Shown here: in pieces, positions 13,076-14,878 of the stretch
Layout: every line of letters starts with the position of its first letter
How positions within the stretch are numbered: position 1 is the first letter of the stretch
Assembly (NCBI GenBank): GCA_951406725.2
Contig: OX597817.1
Span: 125,488,001-125,552,000 of the forward strand
Source: Octopus vulgaris
Lineage: Eukaryota
Direction: 5' to 3'
DNA length: 64,000 nucleotides
Translations under genes and position numbers: made by a program
Notes under the pieces: model-generated
Seen by the model: the letters and a program-made list of their open reading frames with translations, nothing else
Told to the model about the DNA's origin: nothing
Database searches by the model: none

Positions 13076-13643
13076 AATTATTACATTATATAAAAGGGCT
13101 TAGTAAAATAAATTACTTTGCCGCATACTGAACTCATTAGAAATAGCAGCTAAAAAAACTTTTTTAAAACTATCTCCAATACTTAAAGAAAATCTCTCTC
13201 GTATAGTGTTTGCTCAATTCAACTCACGAAAGCAAGAAATGGAAAGATGTGTAAATTTAGCATTATGCCATCTAGATACTGAAATTTCTCTTCCACAGGC
13301 AAGTAAAGTATGATATGAGGCAACATTTAAAATAATCAACCCTTTCATGCTGGCCAAAATCTCTGATCGAAATAATTGTCAAATTCAGGAACTGCTCCAA
13401 CAACTTTTCGTGAGTTGAATTGAGCAAACACTATACGAGAGAGATTTTCTTTAAGTATTGGAGATAGTTTTAAAAAGTTTTTTAGCTGCTATTTCTAATG
13501 AGTTCAGTATGCGGCAAAGTAATTTATTTTACTAAGCCCTTTTATATAATGTAATAATTTGAATTCGCCTTAAATGGTCCCTTTGTATACTGAATACTTG
13601 GTGAAATTGATTAATTAATTAATTTTACCCTCAATTGTTGAAA
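13076..13643. mobile_element. Fold-back element in (TA)n (Penelope-like geometry) with a captured spacer
   Basis: About 155-bp inverted arms (13076-13231, 13406-13559); spacer 13236-13405 copies 14039-14208; (TA)n on both flanks. Confidence 0.75.
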
Positions 13644-13756
13644 ATATATATATATATATATATATGAATATTTATATACTTATATACATACATTTATATG
13701 AATATATATATACCTACATATATATATGTAAATATATACATATATATGCATATATA

Positions 13757-13800
<44 letters not shown>

Positions 13801-14878
13801 CATACACACACACATGTATATGTGTGCCTCTGTGTGTGTATGTATATTTTTATTTATACAAATACAGAGATGTATATAACTATGCATACAAACTCCCTAA
13901 ATGAATGCTGGCTAGCACACTGGAACAGCTTTTTATATAAAAACGTTGCAAGCATCTATCAGATTTGATGACACAGAGAAAAAACAATCCTATGACAAAA
14001 TTTCTTCATGAAAAGGAAAGGCTAGTGAACATCAACAGGAAATGGAAAGAGGTGTAAATTTAGCATTATGCCATCTAGATACTGAAATTTCTCTTCCACA
14101 GGCAAGTAAAGTATGATATGAGGCAACATTTAAAATAATCAACCCTTTCATGCTGGCCAAAATCTCTGATCGAAATAATTGTCAAATTCAGGAACTGCTC
14201 CAACAACTATGGAAAGAAGATATGAAGCACGATAAAGATAAATCTACAAAATTGTTGTAAAAACAAGATTGTTGGTTTGACGATTACAAAAGCAACTTTG
14301 GATAAGACTTCATGATGAAAATGAAACCACAACAGAAAAATGTGGGAAATTAAGGTAAATCAAAGAAAAACAGGTAAACATGCTACAAAAGAACTGTACA
14401 AGGAAATTAATCTACAAAAAAAAAAAAAGAAGAAGAATAACAAAACACATGCAGAAACAGCCTTCAGAACAACTCAAAGTGGAAATACGTATGCTTTGAA
14501 CTCAAGACATAGCACTGCAATACATGAATGCATGAGATATGGAAATCAATCTACAACGAGAGTTATTGAGATTCATGGCTGGATTAATGTGCCCAGAAGT
14601 GGATGAAGAAGCTGCTTACAAAATCGAACACAGGACAAATAGAAAATAGAAAACTCAGAAGCTTAAAAAGTTACAGAAATCCTGGTTACAGAAGAAGACA
14701 TAATACTGTTAACATTTTTAGGGCAAACATACCTCAACCTGATATTAGAAGTGATTAATCAAAGAAATATTCGCCCAAAATTTATGAATTCATCGAAAAG
14801 AAATCTAAATTGCTGTTTATTTTATTGTAAATGACTATTGTGATTCTGGTATCATATAATTTTAGTATAGTTTTACAT

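Follow-up and report, generated by a model that had tools for sequence, protein, structure and literature searches.

A local DNA copy between the inverted arms of a fold-back element of a probably Penelope-like family

A fold-back insertion at positions 13076-13643 of the window (the whole stretch of 64 kb of DNA that was analysed) holds, between its two inverted arms, a 173-nt copy of DNA that lies a short distance downstream. The best explanation is that a retroelement, very abundant and probably Penelope-like, inserted here as a truncated fold-back, the centre of which was likely filled by a repair patch of local DNA while the insertion was being joined; we assign this reading a probability of about 45%. 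The capture is likely a one-off and recent event without function.

Structure of the insertion and origin of its centre

As assembled, the insertion follows a (TA)n run at 13063-13075, which is likely one half of the target microsatellite, and consists of an inverted, tail-less arm (13076-13232, minus strand), a spacer (13233-13405, plus strand), an arm in direct orientation that is likely the sense strand of the element (13406-13559, plus strand), and a one-sided tail of 84 nt (13560-13643, plus strand), beyond which lies a (TA)n-rich microsatellite (13644-13804). The preliminary description of the locus, made from its letters, had given this same geometry with a tail of about 85 bp. Self-comparison of the arms (13076-13231 against 13406-13559) yielded 156 aligned columns with no substitutions and two 1-nt differences in homopolymer length; the absence of substitutions over 154 nt sets an upper bound of 1.9% on their divergence, and the event is therefore young. 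The spacer corresponds to 14036-14208 (plus strand), 393 bp beyond the right end of the element, in the same orientation and at an offset of 803; 171 of the 173 bases agree (E 2e-84 in the comparison of the window with itself). This match had been noticed earlier between 13236-13405 and 14039-14208, with one mismatch; over its full length there are two, at 13235 and 13248. Both fall within the first 16 nt of the spacer (a chance of 0.008 for that end, or 0.03 for either end), as junction-prone synthesis would give.

The inner ends of the two arms coincide at one position of the repeat family to within 1 nt, the left arm being one base longer. No microhomology is found at the left junction. At the right junction, the last 5 nt of the donor equal a 5-mer that lies inside the arm, 8 nt from its end, so that a 5-bp hairpin can be read on the minus strand across this junction, and the last 3 nt of the donor match the natural continuation of the family if one extra, unexplained homopolymer base is allowed. 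The window contains no N, and the structure is confirmed in the assembly only: zero contigs bridge the arm-spacer junctions among the 32 pieces listed of 16,075 (filtered contigs of four public sequencing runs).

The direction of copying was established from protein similarity. The donor lies in a decayed reading frame at 13894-14392 (plus strand), which is broken by stop codons and by one frameshift near 14015 and appears to be the N-terminal region of a Penelope-type protein. With X placed at its stops, the donor frame found 18 relatives at E up to 0.001 (best tblastn E 1e-25), which map to 13894-14392 and run through both donor ends, and which on the spacer are limited to 13230-13412. Because this similarity passes both donor ends and halts at both spacer ends, the spacer is the copy and the donor is the original. 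The spacer also keeps the donor's in-frame stop codon, the nearest paralogous protein being just 58% identical, and an independent 886-nt contig from one run (X1) holds the donor in the context that it has in the window.

Two relatives from mussels, P0010 and P0021, extend into the motifs DKG and GLPKIHK. The Penelope and Poseidon rows of an alignment in PMC8557442 contain these motifs as well, and the donor is, judging by these sequence motifs and relatives, most likely a dead Penelope-type reading frame. Pfam returned zero matches for three donor frames and no retroelement domain in the 18 relatives, NCBIfam returned no retroelement domain in 5 proteins, and the Atlas gave P0010 just sub-0.9 leads to reverse-transcriptase clusters. 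The captured piece had initially been taken for host sequence, a view that has to be given up, as it appears to be a fragment of an older dead Penelope-type frame and not of a host gene. One 9-mer occurs both at 14042-14050, inside the donor start, and at 14209-14217, directly after the donor end, against a local background of 4 of 775, possibly by chance. The excised circle that this pair suggested was rejected, since the spacer reaches 6 nt beyond the first of the two 9-mers, which would not be expected of a circle. A contig piece that ends at 13292 in three of the runs (X1, X2 and X3) was likewise rejected as a junction contig, because it ends where a 13-residue identity with the paralogue P0005 ends; it is probably another copy of the donor family.

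If transcribed, the insertion is predicted to form a long hairpin (z -31) with the spacer in its loop, and the spacer alone folds no better than shuffled sequences (z +1.7). The proposal of a hairpin RNA carrying host sequence is therefore not upheld, as a spacer placed in the predicted loop would add no host double-stranded RNA. The direct arm and the tail (13406-13643) have a predicted fold of their own, on the plus strand only (z -3.8, reached by 0 of 200 shuffles; minus strand z -1.2). Folded alone, the first bases of this segment pair with its last ones at a probability of 0.5-0.7, so that the common breakpoint of the two arms would be the 5' boundary of the predicted fold. The module, as predicted, has three inner domains, paired ends and no Rfam match, and resembles a structured end that lacks a hammerhead; family variants among the loose ends of contigs keep a 12-bp stem, which the copy at 13406-13643 retains by means of G-U pairs.

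The arm family and its affinities

The distribution of the arms was followed in contigs of four public runs, taken from 24 runs, that were aligned to 12730-13650 (X1, X2 and X6 from organism A, X3 from organism B). Contig depth is here a summed depth that gives no copy number, and the pieces are a filtered 32 of 16,075, in which holes in cover prove nothing. Summed depth was 9e4 to 1.8e6 on the arms and on the tail, which is part of the same repeat family; it was 9e4 to 1.7e6 on the left arm, a copy of the end of this very high-copy repeat, and 0-110 on the bins that hold spacer only; the lowest left-arm bin exceeded the highest spacer-only bin by factors of 2,782 (X1), 8,496 (X2) and 8,298 (X3), and in X6 the spacer-only cover was zero. 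At 13232 the family runs on with one consistent other sequence in 16, 21, 4 and 5 contigs of the four runs, and the reverse complement of that continuation precedes 13405-13406 in X1 and X3 (among 24 of 253 loose ends). Since the same continuation is found at both inner ends, both arms are cut at the same internal position of the family, so that the single breakpoint at which the arms had been said to start is bracketed to within 1 nt by what lies beyond 13232 and before 13406. The spacer is not a constant part of the arm family. The depth contrast, the family continuations and the protein similarity together bear out the original suggestion that it is a copy of neighbouring DNA.

The tail end is covered more deeply than the breakpoint, a slope that would fit a 3'-anchored, 5'-truncated retroelement. 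At 13174 and 13201 approximately 96-100% of the family depth has another letter, and at the paired right-arm positions, 13463 and 13436, the other letter makes up 84-100%; both arms have the rare letter, and therefore both arms derive from one template. Arm-to-arm joints of other copies occur at many positions (n=48, 15 of them listed, some of which may be mapping artefacts of internal hairpins). Two of the 15 listed joints leave the arm at 13230-13231, both having fewer than 30 letters a side and being flagged as weak. Past the TA run at 13644-13650, one consistent sequence follows in 14, 20 and 14 contigs (X1, X2 and X3), as would be expected of a terminal repeat that the next unit follows in tandem. 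What continues the family inwards is absent from the window, and a 29-nt arm motif had zero exact matches in metagenome, viral or prokaryote collections.

The arm family probably belongs to the Penelope-like elements. Its copies join an inverted, 5'-truncated copy to a direct one, with inversion points that vary among the listed joints; (TA)n lies on both sides of the element, an AT-rich target that is not specific to the Penelope-like class; and the one-sided tail of 84 nt compares with 30-40 bp in the literature and with about 67 nt in a hammerhead-bearing fold-back at 37093. The resemblance to other fold-backs of the window that had been remarked upon was confirmed for two insertions with hammerheads, at 37093-37233 and 52409-54155, which both follow the plan of (TA)n, arm, inverted arm, tail and (TA)n. 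The larger of these is a Penelope-type insertion (52246-54155), the inverted arms of which measure 589 nt (97%) and each contain a hammerhead core; on its left it has a tail of about 145 nt, and a GIY-YIG-like frame at 53099-53596 (minus strand) forms its spacer (Atlas 0.95-0.97, word-index search blank). Two small fold-backs with one-sided tails lie between (TA)n runs at 37093-37300 and 54553-54784, the first with a clean hammerhead core and the second with core words seen by eye only.

Several searches bear on this assignment. A strict scan with the hammerhead core motif found cores at 37159/37167 and 52539/54025 and none in 13060-13660, and Rfam found neither a hammerhead nor any other RNA family in 13400-13655, in agreement with the preliminary description, which had seen no convincing hammerhead here. 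The scan covers the 240 nt of the family that are visible, and it recovers two of three cases noted by eye together with five other places that are probably due to chance; Rfam also missed the positive-control hammerheads. Two near-misses (13495 and 13590) are each missing a G of the core, and no family variant is listed at those G positions. A twister-like reading of the arm had no Rfam support and was set aside. The 42-residue frame of the arm had no relative among longer proteins in a word-index search, which is a weak test, and no sequence in the supplement to the octopus repeat paper matched. Naiads are described as lacking canonical hammerheads and favouring (TA)n (PMC8557442), and none of 9 short motifs matched a published Naiad consensus in the supplement of that paper, the line breaks of which can hide a motif. 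The arms could still belong to an undescribed Naiad family.

The surrounding DNA is AT-rich and full of (TA)n runs and retroelement debris, and its coding remnants have named relatives in Octopus sinensis, Octopus vulgaris and mussels, which makes an octopus the likely source. A direct duplication of 587 nt (14879-15462 and 16683-17266, 96.6%) flanks a LINE reverse-transcriptase fragment at about 15600-16600, in the manner of a very long target duplication, and an inverted pair of 70 nt (17523-17592 and 17900-17968, 90%) encloses a 307-nt spacer that has no donor in the window and adjoins (TA)n at 17966. Further along the window lie approximately 1 kb of degenerate 20-nt tandem repeats (22340-23400), a single 5S rRNA-like copy (24827-24945, plus strand, Rfam 93.9 bits), and a frame of 367 residues (34245-35348, plus strand), which we take to resemble the C-terminal part of a LINE with a restriction-like endonuclease and which has an older second copy at 27585-28273 (78%).

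Possible routes to the captured spacer

In the scheme that we favour, the element's protein would cut a (TA)n run, and cDNA would be primed from both ends of the target at two start sites 84 nt apart, leaving the tail on one side. Both cDNAs would stop at the same point of the RNA, and because two ends of the same sequence cannot anneal, a bridge is needed; one cDNA end may then invade nearby DNA by way of a few bases of microhomology, copy 173 nt and be end-joined to the other cDNA. The individual steps have precedents in related systems. A purified Penelope-type protein was reported to cut AT-rich DNA and to extend both strands from two start sites, the distance between which equals the tail (PMC11167929); L1 insertions copy genomic templates of less than 250 bp (10.1101/2024.08.27.596794); and the cDNA ends of R2 prime on themselves or on nearby DNA (PMC11371274). 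Several observations weigh against the local patch or its tie to Penelope. The donor is 393 bp from the site, whereas L1 templates usually lie within 15 bp (10.1101/2024.08.27.596794); none of 4 other inter-arm spacers tested matches other DNA of the window; and in the 240 nt visible no hammerhead, reading frame or published consensus links the arms to Penelope-like elements. The X1 contig that holds the donor also passes without a break through the two points at which a second copy ought to branch off. Short links into very deep repeats are pruned by assemblers, and the unbroken contig could reflect such graph cleaning beside a very high-copy repeat or the absence of the insertion from that sample. 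With the flank almost uncovered in every run, no empty site was seen.

The timing of the patch is the point on which the main rival differs. A near-perfect palindrome may have been inserted first, its tip being broken later by cruciform or hairpin nicking and filled with a templated copy of nearby DNA, a course of events that we regard as less likely. A later break at the tip explains the common breakpoint just as simply, tight fold-backs without spacers are present in the window (37093-37233 and 54553-54748), X2 has a spacer-less turn at this very place (13231 to 13410, depth 104), and templated insertions at breaks are common (PMC11724301). The X2 turn, however, holds four loop bases once that both arms hold here, and it is therefore no simple precursor, and the lack of substitutions between the arms (bound 1.9%) leaves little time for two events. 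Palindromes undergo central rearrangement, and the literature search on that subject found no paper. Sequence alone cannot separate repair at the time of integration from later repair, and the two timings put forward at the outset, during integration or during repair of the hairpin tip, both stand as the leading readings. Less probable again is a route through one cDNA, which would have run from the tail to the breakpoint, jumped to neighbouring DNA or its nascent RNA and copied 173 nt there, before folding back on itself to form the second arm. The minus-strand hairpin of 5 bp at the right junction resembles what a snap-back and a subsequent jump would leave, R2 has been described as snapping back onto its cDNA or onto DNA nearby (PMC11371274), the spacer runs in the sense orientation of the element and likewise of the donor frame, as an RNA template would require, and the rare variants common to both arms would follow automatically. 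Against this, the return jump must land within 1 nt of the exit without microhomology, and a copy that stops 84 nt short, as in other fold-backs, is left unexplained by a single cDNA and is explained by two start sites.

Two further readings deny a capture altogether. In one, which is improbable to a slightly greater degree than the single cDNA, assembly or polishing misplaced local sequence between two arms whose palindrome is difficult to assemble. Such insertions do trouble assemblies (PMC8557442), the two arms differ in homopolymer length, which is a hint of consensus error, and an artefact would agree both with the unbroken X1 donor contig and with the failure of any listed piece to bridge a junction. 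It accords poorly with a window free of N, with two junctions that both fall on the family breakpoint within 1 nt, with a spacer that differs from its donor at two bases and has microhomology at its right junction, and with a unique left flank that is also almost uncovered in all four runs, though X1 holds 0.78 of the stretch's words. In the other, the spacer would be a normal internal part of the family, a shortened body framed by terminal repeats, and the matching sequence at a distance of 0.8 kb would be another copy of the element. The donor is most likely a Penelope-type coding sequence, and the fold-back at 52409-54155 has an element body, its GIY-YIG-like frame, as spacer; yet the depth of the spacer is at single-locus level, in each of the four runs the family carries on past the breakpoint with a different sequence, and the spacer shares the donor's stop codon where the nearest paralogous protein is 58% identical, which together make this reading very improbable indeed.

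Relation to known captures and significance

The insertion shares several features with the inverted, 5'-truncated copies of endonuclease-bearing Penelope-like elements, including Naiads, as these are described by Craig et al. 2021 (PMC8557442) and Frangieh et al. 2024 (PMC11167929): an inverted truncated copy joined to a direct one, a one-sided tail, a (TA)n target and a very high copy number, to which the absence of a canonical hammerhead, common to Naiads (PMC8557442) and to the arm family, can be added. It differs in that those elements have a 30-40-nt tail and the element body at the centre, whereas the tail here is 84 nt and the centre is foreign local DNA. Penelope captures in Adineta vaga (Arkhipova et al. 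2013, PMC3846280) likewise frame unrelated DNA with terminal repeats, and non-coding captures between solo repeats are mentioned there. Those spacers, however, are 0.9-1.5 kb long or contain whole genes, mostly lie between direct repeats and were read as mobilised in trans, and no donor beside the insertion is described in the accessible parts of that account, in contrast to 173 nt at an inversion junction with a donor 0.4 kb away.

A second set of parallels is provided by somatic L1 templated insertions (10.1101/2024.08.27.596794, PMC11702581) and by R2 snap-back junctions (PMC11371274), in which a short genomic segment (less than 250 bp) is likewise duplicated into a new insertion, and which have been explained by a cDNA that leaves its RNA and pairs with nearby DNA. 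Among L1 copies in tumours, 22 templated insertions were reported, typically shorter than 250 bp and with the template no more than 15 bp from the site (10.1101/2024.08.27.596794). The present case comes instead from an invertebrate assembly, with the template 393 bp away and the copy placed between two overlapping inverted arms. In a literature search outside of which most subscription papers fell, no report was found in which DNA from a local donor lies between inverted arms of a Penelope element. Captures of similar kind have been described for L1, R2 and rotifer Penelope elements, and the locus is a single, tidy case of such a capture.

Taken alone, the locus is of little importance: it amounts to 173 nt of a dead retroelement duplicated into an unpaired loop. 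Its value is that of a mechanistic fossil: its arms end on one and the same base and have local DNA between them, which constrains the final joining step of a process where, according to PMC8557442 and PMC11167929, both the completion of insertion and the formation of inverted copies by Penelope-like elements are unresolved. Should captures of this kind prove to recur at a measurable rate, long-read genomes that already exist would allow the joining pathway to be tested. It is conceivable, if doubtful, that Penelope-type integration regularly ends with the bridging of cDNA ends of the same sequence by a patch of 170-240 nt from within approximately 1 kb, a step that would leave a countable signature (equal arm breakpoints and a local donor) across thousands of fold-backs in octopus-like and shark-like genomes. 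Were this true, the joining step could be tested from genomes alone, and Penelope-type elements would be a steady source of short local duplications.
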